Shown: positions 17,782 through 63,030 of the stretch, in pieces
Position numbering within the stretch: position 1 is the first letter of the stretch
How the letters are laid out: each line of letters starts with the position of its first letter
Origin: Bacteroidales bacterium
GTDB taxonomy: Bacteria > Bacteroidota > Bacteroidia > Bacteroidales > UBA4417
Reading direction: 5' to 3'
NCBI GenBank assembly: GCA_038237165.1
Contig: JBBRYZ010000003.1
Span: 2,898-66,897, forward strand
DNA length: 64,000 nucleotides
Notes under the pieces: model-generated
Database searches by the model: none
The model's input: the letters and a program-made list of their open reading frames with translations, nothing else
What the model was told of the DNA's origin: nothing
Program-made: the position numbers and the translations under genes

Positions 17782-17849
17782 AAATCTCACTCTCTCTTAT
17801 TTTTCACTTTTTGTCACCCTGAGTGTAATCGAAGGGCACTTTTCATTCC

Positions 17850-18848
17850 TCACTTTTCACTCCTAACTGCAGTAAGTATTGTTTGGCCCACAGCCATAAG
17901 TGTAGGTTTACTTATGCCAGCCATATTATCACTTTTGGTATGCCAGTTTCTGTAAAATCCTGATTGTGTTGATTGATCGTGTTGGATAATATCAATGGTC
18001 GGAATCTTCCGCAATTGGTTGATATACACATGATCGTCGGTAATCGCATTGGTTCGTTCAGATGAAAAATAATCGCTGTATCCAATAGAAGCGCCAATGT
18101 TCCATACCATCTGAGCTATATCAGGAGCATAATACATGGTAGTGCCTTCCATGGTAAAAACCGCATTTTCGGCGCCAACCATATCGAGCAATATTCCATA
18201 CCGGGCAGTATAACCAGGAACATGCGGATTATGTGACCAATATTGCGAGCCCAGCGCCCAATCGTCAGTCCCCGTATAACCGGCATCCTGAGGCGCGCCA
18301 TAGTCTTCGGCATCTAACAGCAACAAATCAACACCAATTGTTGAAGGCGATATCCTTAACTGACGGGCAATTTCAAGTAGAATACCAACTCCGCTGGCAC
18401 CGTCATTTGCTCCGTCAATCGGCGTGCGGTGCATTGTTGTGTCAGGATCGTTATCAGCATAAGGACGTGAATCCCAATGTGAAGTAAGCAAAACCCGGTT
18501 TGTGCTTCTCGGATTAAATGATGCAATAATATTCTTACCGTTCAACGTTGTTCCGTTGTAGGCTTTGGCAGTAAAGTTCTGCACAACGACATTCGGCGTG
18601 TATTTTTTTAGCGTTGCTTCAAGCCATGCGGCGCATTTTTCATGTGCCTTGCTGTTATTAACCCTTGGGCCGAACTTTACCTGTTCGTTTACAAAATAAT
18701 AAGCCGTATCCGCATTAAATTCAGCAGCTTTAAAGGATTTCACCGGCTCCGAAGTTGAAGATTCATCAGTAGTTTGAGAAGATTTTTGTTTGCACGAACT
18801 AAATGCTGCAATTAAAATAACCGAAACCAAGGCAAGAGAATATCGCAT
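17850..18848 (-). CDS. glutaminyl-peptide cyclotransferase (M28-fold, lipoprotein type)
   Basis: 332 aa. Lipobox AAFSSC; HWDSRP, DGANDGASGVGILLEIAR, LLDAEDYG, LGSQYWS, ILLDMVG, DDH. Closely resembles my recollection of the Porphyromonas gingivalis QC. Confidence 0.75.
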   Translation of the reverse strand: MRYSLALVSVILIAAFSSCKQKSSQTTDESSTSEPVKSFKAAEFNADTAYYFVNEQVKFGPRVNNSKAHEKCAAWLEATLKKYTPNVVVQNFTAKAYNGTTLNGKNIIASFNPRSTNRVLLTSHWDSRPYADNDPDTTMHRTPIDGANDGASGVGILLEIARQLRISPSTIGVDLLLLDAEDYGAPQDAGYTGTDDWALGSQYWSHNPHVPGYTARYGILLDMVGAENAVFTMEGTTMYYAPDIAQMVWNIGASIGYSDYFSSERTNAITDDHVYINQLRKIPTIDIIQHDQSTQSGFYRNWHTKSDNMAGISKPTLMAVGQTILTAVRSEK

Positions 18849-35214: not shown

Positions 35215-35272
35215 CCCCCGCTGGCGCGGATTTGCAATCCGTGCTATTAAGATTTTCAATCCGTGCAATTAG
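35215..35272 (+). repeat. REP copy 1
   Basis: cccccgctggcgcggatttgcaatccgtgctattaagattttcaatccgtgcaattag. Hairpin gcgcggatt/aatccgtgc with one G:T pair. Confidence 0.8.
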
Positions 35273-35297
35273 CCCACCTATCTATCTTTCATATTTA

Positions 35298-35510
35298 TCA
35301 GATAACTAATATATCCAACAATCCATTGTTCCCTGCATAATCAGTAGCACTGCTATATACATATTCTTCAGCTCTAAAAACCAGTCCAACCTCAACGGGA
35401 TTCTGATGTATATAAGTTAGTTTTTGAGCTATAACCGCATTGCTCCAAAGTTCTACAGGATGATTGTCGGCCCGCCAGAACCTGTTACCCTCTTCCGTTT
35501 CAAACTGTTT
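35298..35510 (-). pseudogene. 3' fragment of a duplicated RAYT gene
   Basis: Encodes ..QFETEEGNRFWRADNHPVELWSNAVIAQKLTYIHQNPVEVGLVFRAEEYVYSSATDYAGNNGLLDILVI, near-identical to the C-terminus of the intact copy. It lacks the HUH half. Confidence 0.8.
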
Positions 35511-35571
35511 CCCCCCCCGCTGGCGCGGATTTGCAATCCGTGCTATTAAGATTTTCAATCCGTGCAATTAG
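35511..35571 (+). repeat. REP copy 2
   Basis: Same sequence as copy 1, 299 bp downstream, immediately 3' of the intact RAYT gene. Confidence 0.8.
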
Positions 35572-35596
35572 CCTACCTATCTATCTTTCATATTTA

Positions 35597-36124
35597 TCAG
35601 ATAACTAATATATCCAACAATCCATTGTTTCCTGCATAATCAGTAGCACTGCTATATACATATTCTTCAGCTCTAAAAACCAGTCCTTCTTCAACGGGAT
35701 TCTGATGTATATAAGTTAGTTTTTGAGCTATAACCGCATTGCTCCAAAGTTCTACAGGATGATTGTCGGCCCGCCAGAACCGGTTACCCTCTTCCGTTTC
35801 AAACTGTTTCACCAACCACTCTTTCCTGCTTTCTCTTTGGTTTTCTGCAATTGCCTTTAATACAGCTTTACTGGTAAACTTCTTATAATCGCGAAGAATA
35901 TCAGATAATGTATGTCCTTCCTCTGCACGAACGATCAAATGAACATGATTAGTCATAATGCACCATGCAAAAATTTCCAACCCTTTGTTCTTTTGGCAAT
36001 AGGCCAGGTTATCAATAAGTATATCCTTGTATTCGTTGCGGGTAAAAACATCAACCCAGCCATGCACTGCAAACGTTACAAAATATACTCCATCCGGATT
36101 ATGGAATTTATATTTCCTGCTCAA
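35597..36124 (-). CDS. REP-associated tyrosine transposase (RAYT; IS200/IS605-like Y1 HUH enzyme)
   Basis: 175 aa. HUH motif TNHVHLIV, catalytic-Tyr region LTYIHQNPV. Flanked by inverted REPs. Confidence 0.85.
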   Translation of the reverse strand: MSRKYKFHNPDGVYFVTFAVHGWVDVFTRNEYKDILIDNLAYCQKNKGLEIFAWCIMTNHVHLIVRAEEGHTLSDILRDYKKFTSKAVLKAIAENQRESRKEWLVKQFETEEGNRFWRADNHPVELWSNAVIAQKLTYIHQNPVEEGLVFRAEEYVYSSATDYAGNNGLLDILVI

Positions 36125-38980: not shown

Positions 38981-39112
38981 GGGAGATTGAGGAACTGAGG
39001 GACTAAGGGACTGAGGGAGTGAGGGACTGAGGGAGTGAGAGACTGAGAGACTGAGAGACTGAGGAACTTAAAGACTGAGGGACTGAGAGACTGAGTGAGA
39101 TAGGGAGATGGG
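38981..39112 (+). repeat. degenerate tandem array, 8-nt period (GAGRGACT), about 16 units
   Basis: gaggaact gagggact aagggact gagggagt gagggact gagggagt gagagact x3 ... It fills the whole spacer between the PorZ-like stop and the recO start. Confidence 0.9.
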
Positions 39113-39114
39113 AG

Positions 39115-41478
39115 TTAGCGGACAAAAAGTATTTTTCCTGTTTTTTTCTGGCTGCCGTCAGCGTTAGTCACGAAAACCAGATAAACTCCGGTATTCACTT
39201 TGCGATGCTCAAGATTGCTGCCATCCCATATAACCTGTCCGCCCTGCGCCAGTGTTTCCCATACCAGTGCGCCCGAAACGTCAGTGATTTTTACATTTGA
39301 CTCATTAACCAGGTTGCTGATGAAAATAGGTCCATGATATTCAGGTCGAACCGGGTTAGGATAAATAAATAACGAATCGAGTGTTGATTTTGATTCTACT
39401 TTATAATCCTGGTAAGATACTATTCCCAATGAGGTTCCAAAATACACCTCACCTGAACTGGATATTTTTATAGATTGAATGGAGTTTGACAATAATGGAC
39501 TATTGGCCTCGGTAAAATGCAATAGTTCCTTCCCACCATCAGCTGACATAAGAAATACTCCTGACTTTTCGGTTCCTATCCATTTTTCGTTGTTTCCGTT
39601 TACTGTAATTGCGGTAATCAGTTCCGTGGCAAGTAGTGAATGAATTAATCCGTCTATTACAATCTCAACGGGATGGGCATCATAATCGCCTCCGTTAAAC
39701 ACATTACCGGGGGAAGCAATACGAGAAACTCCCTGGTCGGAACCCAGCCATAATTCGCCGTTGCGGTCAACTGTCATACAGGAAACACTAATTCCTGACA
39801 AAGCGCCATTACCAACCGAATTAGTAAGCTTCATCATTTTATCATCGGCAGGGTTATCAGGCGTATTGTTATCATTAAATACAAAGAGTATAGGATCACG
39901 GGTTTGAATCCATTTCTGATTTTCGTGGTCAATTATAATACCAGCCACAACAGGAGAATTACCAAGAGAGCTGAGGTTAAATGATTTCCATTCACCTGTC
40001 GGCTTCCGCATCGACAAAATATTATACACTTCCGAGTTGGTAACCCACAGATTGTTATTCTGATCAAAAGCAACACCACCTATTCTTAAATATCCATCGC
40101 CATATCCGTCAATATACTGCAAGGTGCTGTTTTGAGGATTATAAATTTTCTTTAATTCTCCTTTCTCAAATTCAAGCAATCCATTTCCCCAACTACCCAT
40201 GAAAGCATGGCTTCCGTCAGTGGGATCAGCTACAACACACATTATATCGCGCATAGGAGTGAATTCCGGGGTATTAATCCAGTTAAAATTACTCCAGGAG
40301 TTGTCAGCAAATGTATAGCATTCGGCACCCCGCCAGAGGTTTGCAAACCTGGTAGTTGTTCCACCTGCAACAGCCCACATTTGCTTTCCGACAATATCCA
40401 TTGCAGCTACCTGCGGTGATGAAGGTCCATCGTATGTATAGCTGTATCCCACCTGGTCGCTGCCTATACTCCACATTCCCTGCTCATTGTCGGCAATCCA
40501 TACTTTACCTTCCTTATCAATCAATGCATCTCGTGGATTAATTAAAAGCTGAGGGTTATATTTGGAATACTGCATGTCAGGTGCTCCGTCAGGTTTGTAT
40601 GTGGTTACATTATAATTATTGCATATCAGGAGGCGGTCCCCGCTAACCCTTATTGAGTAACGGTTTGCGTGATCTGAAGTAAGAAACTTCGACCATTTGT
40701 CTCCGCTCTTCACATACATGGTATCTGAATCCCATTTACCTGTCACCGTTTTATTGGCATATAATTTCCCCGAAAATGATACGATTAGATTTGCATAATC
40801 ATTAGGGCCGGTTATATTTTCCCTGGCCCAGTTTACATAGTAAGCCAGGTTGGCATTTGCGTCTGCTGAAAGTATACCCTTTTCCGTAGCTGCATAAAGC
40901 TTATTATCATCCTGATCAAATGCAATTGACAGCACATTAATCTGTGATCCCGACGGGCCGATATAGTATGTATCCTTGATTTCATGTTTAGCAATATCAA
41001 TCACCACAATTCCGAAACCACAGGCCAGGTAGGCCAGTTTGTCAACAATCAGAATGCTGTTTATGGTTTTATTGCCCAGAATTTGTTTTCGCTTGATATC
41101 CGGAATATTAATAATGTCCGCACCTTTAACCAGGTCGATATTTGTATTTGAATAAGCGACAACAAGTGTGCTTAAGGAACTGCAATAAGCTATACTGCTG
41201 ATACCAACATCCGAAAGTCCAGAGGGAGTAACCTTATTCTGTTTGTTAAGGCTGTTATCTGTTTTGTCAAAATAAACTAAGCTGTATGGCGTTGCTGAGT
41301 ATATGCGGCTTCCGGCTTCGGCTACGGCTATAGATTTTTTATAAGGCAGGTGATCGAGCCATTGATTATAGATTGCATTTTGTGCTTCGACAGCATACAA
41401 TGATGATGTCAGTATGAAAAATACCAATAAAATACGACCGGAAAACTTCATAATACCTGATGATGACTGAATGCTCAT
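39115..41478 (-). CDS. porZ: double beta-propeller T9SS protein, PorZ-like
   Basis: 787 aa. Signal peptide ..VEA|QN, Reg_prop-type repeats throughout, T9SS CTD IYPNPVRPEY...GVYLVFVTNADGSQKKTGKILFVR. Size and architecture match PorZ; orthology is not verified. Confidence 0.55.
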   Translation of the reverse strand: MSIQSSSGIMKFSGRILLVFFILTSSLYAVEAQNAIYNQWLDHLPYKKSIAVAEAGSRIYSATPYSLVYFDKTDNSLNKQNKVTPSGLSDVGISSIAYCSSLSTLVVAYSNTNIDLVKGADIINIPDIKRKQILGNKTINSILIVDKLAYLACGFGIVVIDIAKHEIKDTYYIGPSGSQINVLSIAFDQDDNKLYAATEKGILSADANANLAYYVNWARENITGPNDYANLIVSFSGKLYANKTVTGKWDSDTMYVKSGDKWSKFLTSDHANRYSIRVSGDRLLICNNYNVTTYKPDGAPDMQYSKYNPQLLINPRDALIDKEGKVWIADNEQGMWSIGSDQVGYSYTYDGPSSPQVAAMDIVGKQMWAVAGGTTTRFANLWRGAECYTFADNSWSNFNWINTPEFTPMRDIMCVVADPTDGSHAFMGSWGNGLLEFEKGELKKIYNPQNSTLQYIDGYGDGYLRIGGVAFDQNNNLWVTNSEVYNILSMRKPTGEWKSFNLSSLGNSPVVAGIIIDHENQKWIQTRDPILFVFNDNNTPDNPADDKMMKLTNSVGNGALSGISVSCMTVDRNGELWLGSDQGVSRIASPGNVFNGGDYDAHPVEIVIDGLIHSLLATELITAITVNGNNEKWIGTEKSGVFLMSADGGKELLHFTEANSPLLSNSIQSIKISSSGEVYFGTSLGIVSYQDYKVESKSTLDSLFIYPNPVRPEYHGPIFISNLVNESNVKITDVSGALVWETLAQGGQVIWDGSNLEHRKVNTGVYLVFVTNADGSQKKTGKILFVR

Positions 41479-45800: not shown

Positions 45801-45912
45801 TCTCTTCGTCACTCAGTCTCCAATTTCCAAATCACTCAATCTCTCAGTCTCTCTGTCCCCATTTCTCCCAGTCCCCATGTCTCCCAGTCTCCCCATCCCC
45901 ACTCTCCCCGTC
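45801..45912 (-). repeat. degenerate tandem array, 8-nt period (ACTGRGAG on the minus strand), 14 units, ending at the MATE stop codon
   Basis: Plus strand: tctcttcg tcactcag ... ctctcagt ctctctgt ccccattt ctcccagt ccccatgt ctcccagt ctccccat ccccactc tccccgtc. Same unit as 38981-39112 but in the opposite orientation. Confidence 0.9.
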
Positions 45913-47247
45913 CTAAATAACCCTTCCCTCCCATTTCCCTCTTTTCAGGTAAAACCATGATAAAGACCCAAGAACAATGCTATACATATATTCGCACAAC
46001 CACACAACCTCAATAGGCTGATGGAGTTTCACCGAAAGAACCCATGCAAAAACCAGGTACATACTCAAAGTCACCAATTCCATAGCCAGACCGGTACGTG
46101 TATTGCCGGTTCCTAATACACCGTTAAACAAAACGATGGTAGCCGAAAACAAAAATACGGCGCCAAGGATCACGTAATAAGAAGTTACAGAAGCTTCGAG
46201 CAGATTGGGGTCGCTGGTATAAATGGAAATCATAAAACGCGGAATAAAAATGGCAAGCACAGCTACGATGAGCATAATTCCCATGCTTAACATCAGTATC
46301 TTCCTGATAATTGGCATTACCTGGTTCGAAAAACCCGCACCAATGGCGTTACTCACAATACTGCTTGTTGCTGAACTCATCGCCCATGCCGGAATCATCA
46401 GCAGCATATAAATACTTCGGATAATGTTAGAAACAGCCAGAGAAGTTTCACCCATTTTTTCGATCATCAGGAAAAATCCGAGCCATACCGCGTGCGACAA
46501 CACAAACTGTATCATGATATACAATGAAACATCAAGGGTTTTCTTAATGATGGATAAATCGGGTTTTACGAATGCAAAAAGATTATATTTCGTAAGATGA
46601 GCCTTACGGGCGGTGATGGCAAAAAAGAATAACAAAGCGCAGGCCTCGGAAATTGAGGATGCCAGCCCTGCCCCGGCAATACCCATTTCAGGGAAACCGA
46701 GTTTGCCGAATATCATTCCGTAATCCAGTATCACATTCACACCAGCCATAATCGCTGCGCTGATGCTGATATATTTTGTAAATGCTATCCCTGTATAAAA
46801 GGATCGGAAAAGTAATGCTGACGATGCAAAAAACAATCCGAAAATTCTGTATCTCAAATAAATTGTACTTGCATGCAATACATTTGCCGATGCTATTAAA
46901 GGCTTGAGCATCTGGGCACCGAATAACAGAATAAGGATTGTAATGAAAATAGTTGAAGCACCGAGGAAGTAAAAACTATTATCAAATATGGATCCAATGG
47001 CCGGGTAATCTTTTTCCCCGTGCCTGCGGGCAATTAAAATCTGCACGCCCGTTGTAAAACCATAGGCAACCATAAATAAGGTTATATAAAATAATCCTCC
47101 GATAGCCGAAGCGCCAAGTTCAACAGCGCCAACATGCCCAAGGAAAGCGGTATCAGTAACATTTACAATATTCTGAGCTACCAGGCTGATCATAATCGGC
47201 CAGGAGATAATCCAGATTTTTTTCAAGGTTGGAGCGTGGGTAGGCAT
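45913..47247 (-). CDS. MATE family efflux transporter
   Basis: 444 aa, 12 TM helices. N-terminal IWIISWPIMISLVAQNIVNVTDTAFLGHVG. Confidence 0.9.
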   Translation of the reverse strand: MPTHAPTLKKIWIISWPIMISLVAQNIVNVTDTAFLGHVGAVELGASAIGGLFYITLFMVAYGFTTGVQILIARRHGEKDYPAIGSIFDNSFYFLGASTIFITILILLFGAQMLKPLIASANVLHASTIYLRYRIFGLFFASSALLFRSFYTGIAFTKYISISAAIMAGVNVILDYGMIFGKLGFPEMGIAGAGLASSISEACALLFFFAITARKAHLTKYNLFAFVKPDLSIIKKTLDVSLYIMIQFVLSHAVWLGFFLMIEKMGETSLAVSNIIRSIYMLLMIPAWAMSSATSSIVSNAIGAGFSNQVMPIIRKILMLSMGIMLIVAVLAIFIPRFMISIYTSDPNLLEASVTSYYVILGAVFLFSATIVLFNGVLGTGNTRTGLAMELVTLSMYLVFAWVLSVKLHQPIEVVWLCEYMYSIVLGSLSWFYLKRGKWEGRVI

Positions 47248-52590: not shown

Positions 52591-52704
52591 TTGCTTGTTG
52601 CGGGAATGTTTGACAGGTGAAGACTAAATCATAAAAAATCGAACAGAAGAACATTTGAACATGAGAACATTTGAAATATCAACATGAAACACTGAAACCA
52701 GAAA

Positions 52705-52776
52705 CCCTCAATCCCCTCAATCCCATCAATTCCCCCAATCCTATCAATCTCCTCAATCCCTTCAATCCCCTCAATC
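52705..52776 (-). repeat. degenerate tandem array, 9-nt period (GATTGAGGG on the minus strand), 8 units, ending at the amidase stop codon
   Basis: Plus strand: ccctcaatc ccctcaatc ccatcaatt cccccaatc ctatcaatc tcctcaatc ccttcaatc ccctcaatc. Confidence 0.9.
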
Positions 52777-53571
52777 CTATTTCTCTATCTCAAACCTGTC
52801 CCAATCCATCCCCACCATAAAACTTTTACGGAAATCAATCAATTGATCAAAACTTACGTTGAGTGTTTCCATTCCTTCCTTATTGGATTCAATTTCAACC
52901 AGATGCTTGCCTTTAAAGTCAATAACAGTGGATTCGCCCTGGTGATTGATTCCTTTACCATCAATCCCAACCCGGTTAACTGCAACCACATAACATTGAT
53001 TTTCGATGGCTCGGGCAATAAGCAATTGACGATATGCATAACTGCGGGATGCAGGCCAGTTGGCCATGTATAGAAGGATATCGTATTCATAGATTCCGTT
53101 GGTCCAGGTATTTTTACTCCAGACCGGGAACCTGAGGTCATAGCAAACCAAGGGGCAAATTTTCCAGCCAAATAAATCCACAATAATTTTTTCGCTGCCT
53201 GCCGAAAACTGTTCATGTTCGTTGCCCGGATGAAACAAATGACGTTTATCATAAAATTTATAGCTTCCATCAGGTTGCATCCAAACCAGCCGATTGAAAT
53301 AGTTTCCGTTTTCAACCACAACAAAGCTTCCGGTAATTACACTTTTCAATTCAGCAGCTTTGGTAGCCATCCACTCTACAGTAGGGCCATTCATATCCTC
53401 AGCAAGCGAGCGCTGATCGATCACAAAGCCGGTATTGAACATTTCGGGCAACACAATCAGGTCAGTTTTCCGGTCAAGTTTGCGAAAGAAATCCTCAAAT
53501 TTAAGCAAGTTGCTTTTCTTATCCTGCCAGAAAAGATCTGGCTGAACAAGGGTGATTTTCAGATCGTACAT
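52777..53571 (-). CDS. carbon-nitrogen hydrolase, omega-amidase (YafV/MtnU-like)
   Basis: MYDLKITLVQPDLFW...LPEMF...CYDLRFP. The start at 53571 overlaps the upstream transaminase stop by 13 nt. Confidence 0.8.
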   Translation of the reverse strand: MYDLKITLVQPDLFWQDKKSNLLKFEDFFRKLDRKTDLIVLPEMFNTGFVIDQRSLAEDMNGPTVEWMATKAAELKSVITGSFVVVENGNYFNRLVWMQPDGSYKFYDKRHLFHPGNEHEQFSAGSEKIIVDLFGWKICPLVCYDLRFPVWSKNTWTNGIYEYDILLYMANWPASRSYAYRQLLIARAIENQCYVVAVNRVGIDGKGINHQGESTVIDFKGKHLVEIESNKEGMETLNVSFDQLIDFRKSFMVGMDWDRFEIEK

Positions 53572-56023: not shown

Positions 56024-57112
56024 ATGAAAAAAACGCTACTCTTATTCCTGCTTGTTACAATTCTTGTAATAACGAAAGCACAAATTCCTGTAAATTATTA
56101 TGATGCAGCTTCAGGAAAAACTGGCGCAGAACTTAAAACAGCATTGTATAATATTATTAAAGGGCATACTGTGAAAAGTTATGATTATATATGGACAGCT
56201 TTCCAAACAACTGATAAAAAGTCAAATGGAAAGGTTTGGGACATGTACTCCGACATTCCCGGCGGTACCCCACCTTATGAATATACGATGATCTCAAACC
56301 AATGTGGAAATTATTCCGGCGAAGCATCCTGCTACAACCGCGAGCATAGTTTTCCTAAGAGTTGGTTTGGGGATGTTGCACCTATGAATTGCGATATATT
56401 TCATATTTACGCTACCGATGGATATGTTAATGGAAAAAGAAGTAATTATCCTTACGGGCCGGTAAGTTCACCTTCCTGGACATCATTGAATGGGTCAAAA
56501 CTCGGACCTTGCTCAGCACCTGGATATACGGGAACAGCGTTCGAACCTATTAATGAATACAAAGGCGACCTTGCCCGTACATATTTTTATATGGTGACAG
56601 GTTACGAAGATGTAGTCGCTTCATGGAACTCAAACCCAGAAGCACAACCTACACTTGACGGGACAAAATTCCCATGTTTCAACACATGGATACTCAACGT
56701 TTTGCTTGCATGGAACGCAGCTGATCCGGTCAGCCCTAAGGAAATTGCGCGTAATAATGCTGTTTATGCCATTCAGCATAATCGCAATCCTTACATTGAT
56801 CATCCTGAGTATGTGAACAGTGTTTGGGGCGCCTATGTTGGCATTACTGATACACCTGCACAAATAGCACTTCAGGTATATCCAAACCCGGTTTCAGGAA
56901 GTTGTACTGTAGTTTTACCTTCAGATTACAATCAACAAAATAATGGTTTTGTTGTTTATTCGTCAACAGGCACGCCGGTTTTTGCACCTATGAGTGTGAG
57001 TGGCGACAAGGCAATTCTGAACCTCGAGAGTTTGCCTGCCGGCTTTTACCTGGTACGACTTGCTCTTAATAATTACCATACCATATACCAGGCAAGGATT
57101 ATTAAGAATTAG
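56024..57112 (+). CDS. extracellular endonuclease I family nuclease with T9SS C-terminal sorting domain
   Basis: 362 aa. Signal ..TKA|QI; NREHSFPKSWFG, IFHIYATDGYVNGKRSNYPYG, EYKGDLARTYFYM, NRNPYIDHPE. CTD LQVYPNPVSG...GFYLVRL. Confidence 0.85.
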   Translation: MKKTLLLFLLVTILVITKAQIPVNYYDAASGKTGAELKTALYNIIKGHTVKSYDYIWTAFQTTDKKSNGKVWDMYSDIPGGTPPYEYTMISNQCGNYSGEASCYNREHSFPKSWFGDVAPMNCDIFHIYATDGYVNGKRSNYPYGPVSSPSWTSLNGSKLGPCSAPGYTGTAFEPINEYKGDLARTYFYMVTGYEDVVASWNSNPEAQPTLDGTKFPCFNTWILNVLLAWNAADPVSPKEIARNNAVYAIQHNRNPYIDHPEYVNSVWGAYVGITDTPAQIALQVYPNPVSGSCTVVLPSDYNQQNNGFVVYSSTGTPVFAPMSVSGDKAILNLESLPAGFYLVRLALNNYHTIYQARIIKN

Positions 57113-57284
57113 ATAACGGATTTCGCGTTATAAGCACTTTCCAGCATGCTAATTATTAAACATTTTATGTTTAGTGTTAATCATTAAAAAATGAATAACA
57201 TATAACACTTAATGAAAAATGTTAAAGTTGTGAAAAACAAACCTTTAAAAGTGAAAAACGAAAAGTGAAAATAGAAAATAGTAT

Positions 57285-57560
57285 TTAATGCGAATCAAGG
57301 GTTGGAACGAAATAGCCACGAAGTGGCTAAACATCAATATCCGCCTTAGGCGGAGCAACCAACGGTTATTGATTAATCTAGCGGGATCAGCCACGAAGTG
57401 GTTGAACAGAATTATGCATAATTCAACCCCTTCGGGGCTGACGCTAACTTGCCATTGTCAACCGTGGATTACTCCGCCTAAGGCGGATATTTAAGTGAAG
57501 CCCTTTCAGGGCTTTGCGGAAATATAGAGAAAAATTTAACCCTTGATTGGCATGATTAAC
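57285..57560. repeat. about 270-bp compound imperfect palindrome made of two inverted three-hairpin modules
   Basis: Centre gaattatg|cataattc at 57416/57417. Outer arms aatcaagggtt/aacccttgatt. A 20-nt block aatatccgccttaggcggag is present in both arms as a perfect inverted repeat. Local hairpins agccac-gaa-gtggct and cagccac-gaa-gtggttg (left arm) and caacccc-ttc-ggggctg and aagccc-tttc-agggctt (right arm). Confidence 0.8.
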
Positions 57561-57674
57561 AAATGCATGACTATTGTATGACCATTATATGACAACTCCT
57601 CCCCCTCGAACCAATCATTTTAACCTTGTCCAACTTTTAACGCGAACCACTGAACCCTTTTAACCCTTTTCCCC

Positions 57675-58121
57675 TTGCAAACCATACGAATCACAAAAGA
57701 ATTTAAATTTGAAATGGCTCACGCCCTTAAAGGATACGACGGGCTGTGCCGGAATATTCACGGCCATTCCTACGAACTGCTGGTAACGATTGCCGGAATT
57801 CCAATTGCAGACAGCACTTCAACTAAACTGGGAATGGTTATGGATTTCGGCGACCTGAAGAAAATCGTACGAAAAAATATTATAGATGAATTCGATCATG
57901 CCCTGGTGCTTAGCCGAGAATCAGCTAATGATTTTAAACCCGATGTTGAAATGTTCGGGCGTACCATTCTCGTTAACTATCAACCTACCAGCGAAAATAT
58001 GCTGATCGATTTTGTAGCGCGCCTCAAATCCCAACTGCCTGTAAATGTAAAGCTTCATCATTTGCTGCTCCGCGAAACTGTAACCTCGTATGCCGAATGG
58101 TTTGCGGAGGATAATGTATAA
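57675..58121 (+). CDS. queD: 6-carboxy-5,6,7,8-tetrahydropterin synthase
   Basis: 148 aa. TKEFKFEMAHAL...CRNIHGHSYEL. TTG start as given by the ORF track. Confidence 0.9.
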   Translation: MQTIRITKEFKFEMAHALKGYDGLCRNIHGHSYELLVTIAGIPIADSTSTKLGMVMDFGDLKKIVRKNIIDEFDHALVLSRESANDFKPDVEMFGRTILVNYQPTSENMLIDFVARLKSQLPVNVKLHHLLLRETVTSYAEWFAEDNV

Positions 58122-58143
58122 AATAATTTCGGATGTCGGATTG

Positions 58144-58293
58144 TAGAAGGGAACGCGGATAACGCGGAAAGAACGGATGAACGCGGATTTCGGATTGCGA
58201 ATATCGGATGTAAGATTGTGGATTTCAAATGTCGGATATCGTATTTTAGAAGGGAATGCGGATAACGCGGAAAGAACGGATGAACGCGGATTT
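58144..58293 (+). repeat. two copies of a 47-nt direct repeat (one mismatch) 103 bp apart, inside a CGGAT/GCGAAT word-rich spacer
   Basis: tagaagggaaYgcggataacgcggaaagaacggatgaacgcggattt at 58144-58190 and 58247-58293. Confidence 0.85.
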
Positions 58294-58312
58294 ATAGTTT
58301 TGTAAATCCACT

Positions 58313-58368
58313 ACTCATTATTCGCTATTCATTATTCATTGTTCATTGTTCATTGTTCATTATTCCTG
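58313..58368 (-). repeat. degenerate tandem array, 7-nt period (AATGAAC on the minus strand), 8 units
   Basis: Plus strand: actcatt attcgct attcatt attcatt gttcatt gttcatt gttcatt attcctg. Confidence 0.9.
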
Positions 58369-58431
58369 CTCTCCAGTCTCAGACACCCTCCGGGTGTACA
58401 GTCACTTTTCACTTTTTACTCTTCACTTTTT

Positions 58432-59128: not shown

Positions 59129-59322
59129 TCTTTGTGATTTTGTGAATTTTTATTCTGTATAAAGCCTTACAGTGTTACAAAGTTACAGCGTTACAGGTCG
59201 CTGAGCGATGGTTGGTGAGCGAAGCCGAACCAAGCCGAAGCTCAGAGTTACAGTATTCCTCTCTTTACATCCTTATATCCTACTCCTTATAACTTATACC
59301 TTTCCTTACTTCTTATAACTTA

Positions 59323-62938: not shown

Positions 62939-63030
62939 TTTGTATGATTGGAATTGGATTATTGTTTGGATCAGGATTTAGTTGTTGGCTTCAGCCAATG
63001 CACTATGCACCAAGCACTATGCACTATTCT

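Follow-up and report, generated by a model that had tools for sequence, protein, structure and literature searches.

Results

A palindromic element lies between an endonuclease gene and queD

The window (the whole 64,000-nt stretch of DNA that was analysed) contains an endonuclease gene and queD separated by 562 nt. In close relatives (L012 and L013) that have the same gene order (endonuclease-queD-udk-OAD) and a QueD that is 93% identical, the spacing is 11 nt. Within the spacer of the window is a 266 bp asymmetric compound palindrome upstream of queD (57288-57553), bordered by short tandem repeats (Table 1). The orthologous spacer in the close relatives does not contain this element and is an empty site; the element is thus dispensable for queD. 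Its presence sets queD apart from what was formerly its operon partner.

The left flank of the spacer is present in two other relatives (L010 and L014) and absent from L012, and the copy number of the right-flank repeats is hypervariable in relatives, ranging from 2.5 to more than 25. In the relatives' assemblies, contig ends or a 100-N scaffold gap (L010 and L014) fall exactly at the element and its flanking repeats. queD begins with a TTG codon at 57675. We found no Bacteroidetes-type promoter motif between the element and queD, indicating that expression of queD needs read-through. Transcripts from the upstream endonuclease gene probably read across the element into queD, and an effect of the element on queD, if there is one, would be on mRNA structure or stability and not through ligand sensing.

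Architecture of the element

The limits of the element were set by the start and stop of homology with copies elsewhere. Relative to the copies in L033, L034 and L035 (83% identity), the edges of homology are exactly 57288 and 57553, from ATGCGAATCAAGGGTT to AACCCTTGATTGGCAT, and a full-length profile of the element matches the window at 57289-57552 (E = 6e-70). The element consists of terminal inverted repeats around six hairpins in mirror order, H1-H2-H3 followed by H3'-H2'-H1'. The two arms, 57288-57416 (+ strand) and 57417-57553 (reverse complement), meet where gaattatg adjoins cataattc (57409-57424), and their column identity is 77% in a pairwise alignment that includes flanks. The terminal inverted repeats are 16 nt long and complementary at 15 of 16 positions, which is within the requirement for MITEs (at least 10-15 bp). 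The terminal-repeat pattern has two matches in the 64 kb (0.06 expected), and neither the window nor the other loci examined contain another.

Each arm has one exact copy of the 20-mer AATATCCGCCTTAGGCGGAG, which is found nowhere else in the 64 kb and in none of 100 shuffles. At this position the other four elements carry ACCGTGGGT instead, and H2 in L033 is a perfect 15-bp stem (TCAATAACCGTGGGT-gca-ACCCACGGTTATTGA). The replacement of half of H2 by a CCGCC mini-hairpin is mirror-symmetric in the two arms and resembles arm-to-arm copying. The two inverted modules of about 130 nt, the three hairpins per arm and the 20-nt block in both arms, all described in the original prediction, are found in the sequence.

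Table 1. Features of the spacer between the endonuclease gene and queD (positions in the window)
Feature	Position	Strand	Remarks
Left spacer flank, outside the element: AT-rich DNA, then GTGAAAA/GAAAATA 7-mer repeats (57230-57281)	57113-57287		
Whole element, 266 bp	57288-57553	+	Left-to-right orientation co-directional with flanking genes
Left terminal inverted repeat, ATGCGAATCAAGGGTT	57288-57303	+	
Hairpin H1, left arm, TAGCCAC-GAA-GTGGCTA	57313-57329	+	
20-nt block, left copy, with mini-hairpin TCCGCC-TTA-GGCGGA (57340-57354)	57336-57355	+	Replaces outer half of ancestral H2 stem
Ancestral H2, remnant 3' half, CAACCAACGGTTATTGA	57356-57372	+	Ancestral form GCAACCCACGGTTATTGA; from L033 alignment
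Hairpin H3, left arm, TCAGCCAC-GAA-GTGGTTGA(A)	57387-57406	+	Has G:T pair
Symmetry centre	57407-57421		Arms join between 57416 and 57417; left arm has 5 additional nt (gaaca)
Hairpin H3, right arm, TTCAACCCC-TTC-GGGGCTGA	57422-57441	+	A-T to C-G pair change relative to left H3
Ancestral H2, remnant 5' half, right arm, AACCGTGGATTAC	57460-57472	+	
20-nt block, second copy, with mini-hairpin (57473-57487)	57472-57491	-	Replacement mirror-symmetric to that in left arm
Hairpin H1, right arm, AAGCCCT-TTC-AGGGCTT	57498-57514	+	Two pairs differ from left H1, both compensated
Right terminal inverted repeat, AACCCTTGATTGGCAT	57538-57553	+	
Right spacer flank, outside the element: 11-mer gaccattgtat-type (57567-57593) and AACCCTTTT-type repeats	57554-57674		Reaches queD start

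Copies at unrelated loci

We sought homologues with the spurious 68-aa ORF of the element (57288-57491) as a protein query. Copies were therefore recovered only through ORF calls on the + strand, which might bias the orientation counts given below. The ORF matches P0121 (78% identity), which maps to L033 (NCBI GCA_038249635.1), L034 and L035, where the element lies between lptE and a gene of 320 aa upstream of secG-groES-groEL. A profile search yielded P0122, P0124, P0126 and P0127. P0122 maps to L075-L079, where the element is in a contractile-injection operon, 36 nt after a vgrG-like gene and 36 nt before a PAAR gene, and L080-L082, to which P0127 and P0124 map, are divergent members that keep the order of the hairpins. 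Counted by neighbouring genes, the third assembled locus other than queD follows a polysaccharide deacetylase gene, a further copy is upstream of a beta-lactamase gene, and P0128, known from the protein alone, implies one more locus. In L083, the arm module is repeated three times head-to-tail. The insertion loci in close relatives number at least four, and other members of the family are more distant: the family is spread in Lentimicrobiaceae-like Bacteroidota at several unrelated loci, and the search for other copies that the original prediction had proposed shows that the palindrome at queD is not a one-off.

The element measures 254 bp in L033 and L075, 283 bp in L080 and about 273 bp in L082, and the terminal repeats in L033, L075 and L080 have element-specific sequences that match between the two ends. 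A single sample (ERZ28775515) carries the queD, lptE and injection-system loci at similar coverages of 10.9x, 8.4x and 8.0x, as given in the contig names. The window itself holds one copy, as judged by searches with three blocks of the element (exact and with 3 mismatches), which matched the two arms only, and by scans with profiles of the arm and of the full element. No direct repeat indicative of a target-site duplication flanks the element in the window or in L075; the phase of the surrounding GAATART 7-mer array in L033 fits a duplication of 2 bp (AT) or 5 bp (GAATA). No empty sites were recovered for the lptE and injection-system loci.

Wherever the neighbours are known (five loci), the element runs in the same direction as the genes on either side. 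A parasite that acts purely at the level of DNA would not be expected to show this, and it hints at an RNA-level constraint.

Hairpins are conserved through paired changes

The 276-nt stretch from 57285 to 57560 folds at -72.9 kcal/mol, compared to -30.4 +/- 3.6 kcal/mol for shuffled sequences (z = -11.8), and the foldback is the minimum-energy structure. Across the ten arms of the five elements, H1 and H3 are kept through paired changes, with five of the seven pairs of H1 changed on both sides, and the terminal stem covaries as well. Paired cells make up 88.8% versus 25-43% in slid controls, and the covariation score was reached by none of 500 shuffles. L033 and L075 have the same stem sequence in every hairpin except for a few positions in the right-arm H1, whereas their linkers diverge. 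The spacing from H1 to H3 is 69 nt in four elements.

Each module had been thought to be strand-specific and to fold best in one polarity. The + strand of the left arms does fold better, by 2.4-6.3 kcal/mol; however, folding arm by arm revealed no consistent preference of the right arms for the inward strand, and the mirror polarity of the loops and of the G:T pair is inherited. The G:T pair noted on the inward strand of both arms is present, but is not independent evidence, because the arms are inverted copies of one ancestor. In three elements, adding the two arms together gives the + strand an advantage of 4-7 kcal/mol over the - strand.

The arms differ in ancient ways and change in concert

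The original prediction also described paired substitutions between the arms that preserve the local stems, and these are present as stated: cagccAc/gTggttg on the left corresponds to cagccCc/gGggttg on the right, and agccAC/GTggct to agccCT/AGggct. The left/right differences, among them two indels (14 nt and 5 nt) and the compensatory pairs, are common to all five elements, indicating that the arms diverged before the copies spread. The shared differences speak against a head-to-head duplication as a local event at queD. What is copied to new sites is the entire asymmetric palindrome. The assembly is unlikely to have produced it as an artefact, since indels and substitutions set the arms apart and recur as arm-specific differences in independently assembled copies.

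Other segments behave differently. Within one element, both arms show concerted change at the termini, in the linker that precedes H3 and in the 20-nt block; AAGGGTT, AAAAGT and GTGTGGGT, from the termini, are each found in both arms of a single element. These changes indicate that the arms also interact or are homogenised. The view that the paired substitutions would break long-range pairing is therefore correct in part: pairing between the arms is weakened at H1 and H3 and elsewhere the arms change together. We suspect that the arms anneal to each other at some point, in single-stranded DNA or in a cruciform, which would account for the concerted changes.

The element is non-coding

The ORF over the element is open in all copies found (64-118 aa, 68 aa in the window). 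Its ATG is at the first base of the element in four of the five elements and overlaps the stop codon of the upstream gene in L080, and the distance from H1 to H3 equals 23 codons. A small protein gene starting from the ATG at the left terminus would be consistent with these features, but copies can be found only if they have an open frame, and the open frame is thus an ascertainment effect. Furthermore, dN/dS between L033 and L075 is about 1 (0.83, 0.97 and 1.44 in the three frames), the C-termini end at differing places, and conservation tracks the hairpin stems and not the codons. A sensitive protein search detected no relatives outside the element family: four of six matches were copies or arm arrays, and the other two were unrelated repetitive proteins. 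We conclude that the element is non-coding and consider the chance of a protein gene to be close to negligible.

Searches for known RNAs, signals and further copies

There were no matches to Rfam at the gathering threshold in the whole window, and a permissive search (57050-57750, E <= 10) gave only a chance match to mir-671 (19 bits versus a threshold of 65). The element resembles preQ1 riboswitches in its position upstream of a queuosine biosynthesis gene. However, it matches neither preQ1 nor any other Rfam family, is absent upstream of queD in close relatives and adjoins unrelated genes elsewhere, so that a preQ1 riboswitch or queuosine-gene leader can be dismissed, as originally predicted. 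A scan for tRNA and tmRNA found none. The suggestion of a pair of convergent structured RNAs is not borne out; no inward-facing promoter motifs were found. Intrinsic terminators (a GC-rich hairpin followed by a T-run) were absent from the + strand, and two weak sites were found on the - strand (0.8 expected), which argues against a bidirectional terminator. An operator for a dimeric regulator was rejected because the element is too long and too branched; an integron attC site and a dif/Xer site were also considered and rejected.

A scan of 185,579 species genomes with the 19-mer ATATCCGCCTTAGGCGGAG gave eight single matches, all without homology to the element; it picked up the nested mini-hairpin and not the element family. 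Six of the eight are in intergenic junk of Bacteroidota and Nitrospirota. A two-block pattern of the element found no further copy in JGI metagenomes and only five unrelated GC-rich loci. Together, these two scans indicate that the family is rare or lineage-restricted. In viral contigs, the 19-mer and the H2 hairpin had no matches and the terminal repeat had 39 single matches, none paired and all confined to the repeat itself. BLAST against plasmids and phages gave no match, and none of 8000 word candidates scored with a six-frame concatenated pseudo-protein query.

Discussion

We propose, with a probability of about 0.7, that 57288-57553 is one copy of a 254-283 bp palindromic family and a MITE-like, non-autonomous foldback element. 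MITEs are defined by small size and terminal inverted repeats (PMC3733652, PMC11602168), both of which the element has. Its size is within the prokaryotic range (about 50-800 bp), it encodes no transposase and has no coding capacity beyond the spurious ORF, and it is found at unrelated loci with presence/absence polymorphism. The MITE-like mobile repeat originally suggested has thus proved to be repeated, non-coding and palindromic, with copies at other loci, and its mobility is probable. The family is new; its kind, bacterial "junk" mobile DNA, is an ordinary one, and no new category is opened. We found no transposase or insertion sequence with matching ends in the window or at the other loci examined, and mobilisation could occur in trans by an enzyme encoded elsewhere. 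This could be a DDE transposase with the terminal repeats and the invariant H2 palindrome as its recognition sites, or an HUH/Y1 enzyme that acts on folded single-stranded DNA. Counting against a MITE, the sequence and spacing of the hairpins are conserved more strictly than in most such elements.

The closest parallels are bacterial MITEs built as long imperfect palindromes, such as ERIC/IRU and YPAL (Enterobacteria) and Correia/NEMIS (Neisseria), which are also 100-300 bp long, non-coding and bounded by terminal inverted repeats, form long hairpins, occupy intergenic sites that are often within transcription units, and are polymorphic between relatives. Orientation-dependent effects of ERIC and Correia on mRNA are documented (reviewed in PMC3733652, PMC2229807). 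In contrast to ERIC, YPAL and Correia, the element described here shows no sequence similarity to them, lacks a clear target duplication (TA or other), carries six internal hairpins that are far more strictly conserved in sequence and spacing than the rest of it, and has an ancient and fixed arm asymmetry and an apparently low copy number.

A doubtful alternative is that the element is of the REP/REPIN/BIME type. The hairpins would then be the units, joined in inverted or tandem arrays and bound in single-stranded form by a RAYT, an HUH tyrosine transposase, and replication forks would be where the palindrome moves as a REPIN-like multimer. Hairpin modules that are kept to the base while linkers drift, the head-to-tail array in L083 (compare the tandem clusters of BIMEs) and the lack of a clear target duplication, as expected of HUH elements, all agree with this. 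So do the C-GAA-G triloops, which Hirao et al. in 1994 are said to have found very stable in single-stranded DNA. The foldback, with its compensatory and concerted arm changes, is what is expected of an inverted doublet and resembles REPINs, in which compensatory changes across the fold are reported (PMC3116915). RAYT subclasses 2.4 and 2.6 occur in Bacteroidetes, the latter with "atypical secondary structures" that are copied elsewhere in the genome (PMC6006769). However, the hairpins of REPs have the tetranucleotide GT[AG]G or CGTC at their foot (PMC3733652, PMC6006769), and the feet of H1, H2 and H3 are ATAGCC, AATAACC and GATCAGCC, with GTGG inside stems only. The label BIME, which the original prediction had offered, is therefore withdrawn for want of its defining GTAG/CGTC tag. 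In addition, at the loci examined no RAYT gene is near any copy and no Y1 transposase Pfam match was obtained, the apparent copy number is low (one in 64 kb, where REP-type elements number tens to hundreds per genome), and the element has defined 16-nt terminal inverted repeats, which REPs do not. Each arm contains three different hairpins (about 125 nt), not one REP of 20-40 bp, and none of the hairpin sequences is listed in the REP tables of PMC6006769, with nothing relevant in a full-text search.

Two other explanations place the origin of the structure in RNA or in the spacer itself. An RNA structure of about 255 nt, intercistronic or in a 5' UTR and made of a closing stem plus hairpins, that affects mRNA processing, stability or read-through, selected for its orientation and only secondarily spread, would explain why the element is co-directional at every locus, why one copy is inside an operon so close to vgrG and PAAR, why the + strand folds better and terminator-like sites are on the - strand only, and why H1, H3 and the terminal stem covary; the read-through needed at queD is in keeping with it. 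We nevertheless think it quite unlikely: Rfam has no match, the copies adjoin genes of unrelated function, a close relative lacks the element at this site, the orientation bias may stem from the ORF-based search, and mirror symmetry in the sequence itself (arms 71-77% alike) belongs to the DNA level and is not required of an RNA gene. Two features of the locus suggest a local, one-off inverted duplication, or a relic of replication slippage and template switching, without family or function: the hypervariable junk of short tandem repeats in the spacer and the mirror-symmetric replacement in H2. Template switching in quasi-palindromes, attributed to Ripley in 1982, can reportedly yield paired changes without selection. 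The same element, with the same ends and asymmetries, is found at unrelated loci and in other samples, and the lptE and injection-operon copies refute a local event as the full explanation, leaving it a very small probability. Local copying may be the origin of the 20-nt block alone.

A MITE-like element remains our preferred reading. More tentatively, and with the odds against it, we consider that the copies belong to a modular Bacteroidota hairpin system, in which two or three types of hairpin among GCCAC-GAA-GTGGC, ACCGTGGGT-GCA-ACCCACGGT and CAGCCAC-GAA-GTGGTTG are preserved base for base at fixed spacing, assembled as palindromes or tandem arrays, co-oriented with transcription, and homogenised between arms by fold-back copying. 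Such a system, if real, would imply a dedicated enzyme for single-stranded DNA, e.g., a Bacteroidetes RAYT-like HUH protein that uses hairpins other than GTAG, or alternatively a mobile structured RNA that works inside operons.

In public databases, the element family is annotated as "hypothetical proteins" of 64-118 aa (P0121, P0122, P0124, P0126, P0127, P0128). Recognition of the family clears these spurious genes and accounts for fragmented metagenome assemblies. It also documents mobile DNA, active or recently so, in Lentimicrobiaceae-like Bacteroidota, a poorly studied group. Because the element splits queD from its former partner and sits in a contractile-injection operon, it may influence expression there. 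Lastly, base-perfect hairpins, drifting linkers, ancient asymmetry and concerted termini occur together, making the element a compact test case of whether palindromes are kept by selection for single-strand structure or by templated copying from arm to arm.

Elhai et al. in 2008 reportedly described small dispersed hairpin repeats nested in heptamer tandem repeats of heterocystous cyanobacteria. The element likewise lies within 7-mer arrays (in the window and in L033), although it is from another phylum, has other sequences and is ten times longer. It also nests a 15-nt mini-hairpin, CCGCCTTAGGCGG, which recurs in junk DNA of other phyla and which, under a modular hairpin system, would be a second, smaller, cross-phylum mobile unit.

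A dispersed family of palindromic elements

The palindrome upstream of queD is a real feature and was correctly spotted. The sequence at 57285-57560 matches the description in the original prediction, including the identical 20-mer and the paired substitutions in two hairpins. In pairwise alignment with the reverse-complemented right arm, the left arm has 77% column identity, with 14-nt and 5-7-nt indels. Three conserved blocks have two occurrences apiece in the 64-kb window and essentially none in shuffles. The predicted single-strand fold of the region has an energy of -72.9 kcal/mol, compared with -30.4 +/- 3.6 for shuffles (z = -11.8), and the value for the opposite strand is nearly equal.

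Features of the queD region, the palindrome and its hairpins, and the repeat-filled spacers of the window (hairpins are read from the outer end to the centre)
Feature	Position	Strand	Details
Endonuclease I with type-IX secretion tail (upstream gene)	56024-57112	+	
queD (downstream gene)	57675-58121	+	TTG start
Outer inverted pair ATGCGAATCAAGGGTT / AACCCTTGATTGGCAT	57288-57303 and 57538-57553		94% complementary (inverted-repeat search)
54-nt inverted pair	within the palindrome		80% (inverted-repeat search)
Central inverted pair	57387-57406 / 57422-57441		90% (inverted-repeat search)
H1			left arm GCCRC-GAA-GTGGC; right arm CCCT-GAA-AGGG type
H2			left arm ACCGTGGGT-loop-ACCCACGG; right arm the same
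H3			left arm CAGCCAC-GAA-GTGGTTG; right arm CAGCCCC-GAA-GGGGTTG
Short-period tandem-repeat spacers	38988-39118; 45812-45913; 52649-52780; 58152-58431; 59131-59241; 62995-63027; 17837-17868		

Of the readings originally proposed, that of a mobile repeat is supported: copies lie at unrelated loci, with sharp homology limits and presence/absence polymorphism. DNA pattern scans of large collections (a 19-mer in 185,579 species genomes and a two-block pattern in JGI metagenomes) did not recover the element, and the route to other copies was its spurious 68-aa ORF, used as a protein query. This matched P0121 (78% identity), a spurious ORF that two ENA contigs and one NCBI assembly (GCA_038249635.1) carry between lptE and the gene upstream of secG-groES-groEL. 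When the lptE-locus DNA is aligned with the window, homology starts at ATGCGAATCAAGGGTT and stops at AACCCTTGATTGGCAT, the flanks are unrelated, and the two copies are 83% identical. A profile built from two ORFs and searched against 1.8 billion representative proteins found four additional spurious ORFs. P0122 led to five contigs in which a contractile-injection operon has a 254-bp copy between its vgrG-like and PAAR genes. Divergent copies were reached through P0127 and P0124; these follow a polysaccharide deacetylase gene or precede a beta-lactamase gene. P0128 led to the left end of a close copy joined to yet another flank. P0126 led to a soil assembly with three right-type arms head-to-tail (GCA_965610685.1, L083 5795-6384); a partial arm lies about 200 nt upstream in the opposite orientation, and the arms form a BIME-like cluster rather than a palindrome. 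In sample ERZ28775515 the queD, lptE and injection-system loci all occur at 8-11x coverage, which fits one genome carrying at least two assembled copies; a third is probably within its unassembled queD spacer.

All five full elements (those of the window, the lptE locus and the injection-system locus, and the divergent copies L080 and L082) have a common order: terminal repeat, H1, H2, H3, centre, H3', H2', H1', terminal repeat. Across elements, left arms are most like left arms and right arms like right arms, and thus the ancestor of the family already had the arm asymmetries: the compensated pairs, the 5 nt at the centre and the 14-nt insertion before H1'. The lptE-locus and injection-system copies, each 254 bp, are 81% identical without an indel, and all substitutions fall outside hairpin stems save a few positions in the right-arm H1.

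Local hairpins and arm-to-arm pairing

Across the ten arms, 88.8% of positions in the three local hairpins are paired, compared with 25-43% when partners are slid. Both-sided changes occur in five of the seven H1 pairs and in one H3 pair. None of 500 shuffles reached the observed covariation score, although many cells derive from one old left/right split and perhaps four or five events are independent. H2 is invariant in eight of the ten arms and, because it never varies, is uninformative on structure; such strict conservation suggests that its sequence is specifically recognised. The two H3 hairpins of L082 are distinguished by a G-C versus an A-T pair; each local stem stays perfect and the long-range helix incurs five mismatches, an independent indication of local H3 pairing. 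With RNAalifold on the five full elements, H1 prefers local pairing, whereas H2 and H3 prefer arm-to-arm pairing. The termini (AAGGGTT, AAAAGT, GTGTGGGT) and the linker before H3 (TAGCG or AAAG) vary between elements yet match within each. Thus, both local hairpins and arm-to-arm complementarity are maintained, as they are in REPINs (PMC3116915).

The 20-nt block has a history particular to the window copy, in which TCCGCC-TTA-GGCGGA stands in place of the outer half of the H2 stem (15 nt for 9); the H1-to-H3 distance is 75 nt here and 69 nt in the other four elements. The block is identical in both arms, with about a quarter of the remainder different, because the replacement sits at mirror positions of both arms. 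Possibly one arm served as the template for the other, through quasi-palindrome correction or fold-back templating; it is also possible that the mini-hairpin was inserted twice at the same target. The mini-hairpin core, CCGCC-TTA/TAA-GGCGG (57340-57354 and 57473-57487), recurs as a 13-15-mer in intergenic junk of unrelated Bacteroidota/Nitrospirota and other GC-rich contigs (L002, L003, L006-L008, L028-L032), with six occurrences within 3 kb of contig L004 (3808-6530), often nested inside larger palindromes and beside simple repeats. It may be a very small mobile unit, or it may have arisen by convergence.

RNA, strand and coding readings

The strand-specific reading, in which each module folds best on the strand read towards the centre, and the reading as a pair of convergent structured RNAs are not supported. 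The inward loops and the G:T pair simply follow from the arms being inverted copies. When each arm is folded singly as RNA, the + strand is the more stable for left arms (by 5.4, 6.3 and 2.4 kcal/mol); for right arms the more stable strand is + (by 1.3), - (by 2.0) and + (by 2.3 kcal/mol), so an inward preference is not consistent. If anything, the whole + strand is predicted to fold slightly better. No Rfam family reached threshold anywhere in the window, a permissive Rfam search of 57050-57750 gave a chance microRNA match alone, and a tRNA search found none. We treated the ORF over the element as spurious rather than as a real gene because dN/dS between the lptE-locus and injection-system copies is 0.83, 0.97 and 1.44 in the three frames, the ORFs stop at differing points, and copies were detectable only with an open frame.

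The left-to-right direction of the element is that of the flanking genes at all five loci with known neighbours. This could reflect RNA-level selection, in a sample that is biased, as gene callers favour co-directional small ORFs. Terminator-like sites lie on the opposite strand only, and no Bacteroidetes-type -7 motif was found between the element and queD; we infer that transcripts of queD now run through the element. The copy at L075 5965-6290, in a phage-tail-like operon, lies 36 nt past the vgrG-like gene and 36 nt ahead of the PAAR gene, so expression of the downstream baseplate genes would require transcription across it.

Classification

The element agrees with the usual definition of a MITE (PMC3733652, PMC11602168) in size, terminal repeats, non-coding nature, dispersal and presence/absence polymorphism, and the assignment rests on these features, not on target duplication or a parent transposase. 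In Bacteroidota genomes, 81,380 distinct MITEs have been reported (PMC11602168). The element lacks the GTAG/CGTC tag and so falls outside the REP definition; RAYTs associated with atypical hairpins have been described in Bacteroidetes (PMC6006769). Thus, we regard the family as new, of a kind already known, and with REP-like traits. Its value is mainly for annotation and assembly, and it neatly illustrates how palindromic repeats can evolve while preserving their hairpins.

The queD spacers and other repeats

Uncultured Bacteroidota, including one named Lentimicrobiaceae, carry the closest QueD homologues. Two contigs with 93% identical QueD (L012 and L013) have the same gene order as the window (endonuclease-queD-udk-oxaloacetate decarboxylase), with an endonuclease-queD spacer of 11 nt rather than 562 nt and a queD-udk spacer of 52 nt rather than 310 nt. 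Two closer relatives (L010 and L014, QueD 94-95% identical) have both the left flank and the right-flank repeats of the window, with a 100-N scaffold gap at the expected palindrome position, and 13 further related contigs begin within the right-flank 11-mer repeats. Spacer variation, gaps and contig ends together indicate that the endonuclease-queD spacer is a fast-evolving insertion/expansion region that assemblers fail to cross.

The 11-mer, gaccatYgtat (57567-57593; also L010, L011 and L014-L027), ranges from 2.5 copies in the window to more than 25. Its copy number varies among near-identical metagenome strains, and most contigs end inside it; this hypervariable locus could serve as a strain marker. 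On the 3' side of queD, L010 (1918-2811) and L014 (2588-3481) have a SusD/SusC pair in place of udk (window 58122-58431), preceded by similar cggat/aacgcggat junk, and thus a rearrangement breakpoint coincides with the repeat-rich spacer. In the public annotation, queD (P0018, 135 aa) starts from ATG 57714, probably 13 codons downstream of its true start (57675-57713): when the ORF is read from TTG 57675, alignments with homologues of 148-149 aa cover about 99% of it, and L012 queD has the same TTG.

Tandem repeats of short period (7-11 nt) fill many of the intergenic spacers in this genome; examples are TGAGGGAC x13.5, CCCTCAATC x8, CGGATTT/AACGCGGAT and TCATTAT. They resemble cyanobacterial heptamer tandem repeats and give characteristic spurious ORFs such as ...ADNAERTDERGF... 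At 35215-35810 a 299-bp unit is present twice in tandem at 97% identity; possible causes are recent duplication and collapse or expansion in the assembly. Both units have GATTTGCAATCCGTGC-type 22-mers at their start and overlap ORFs on the minus strand.
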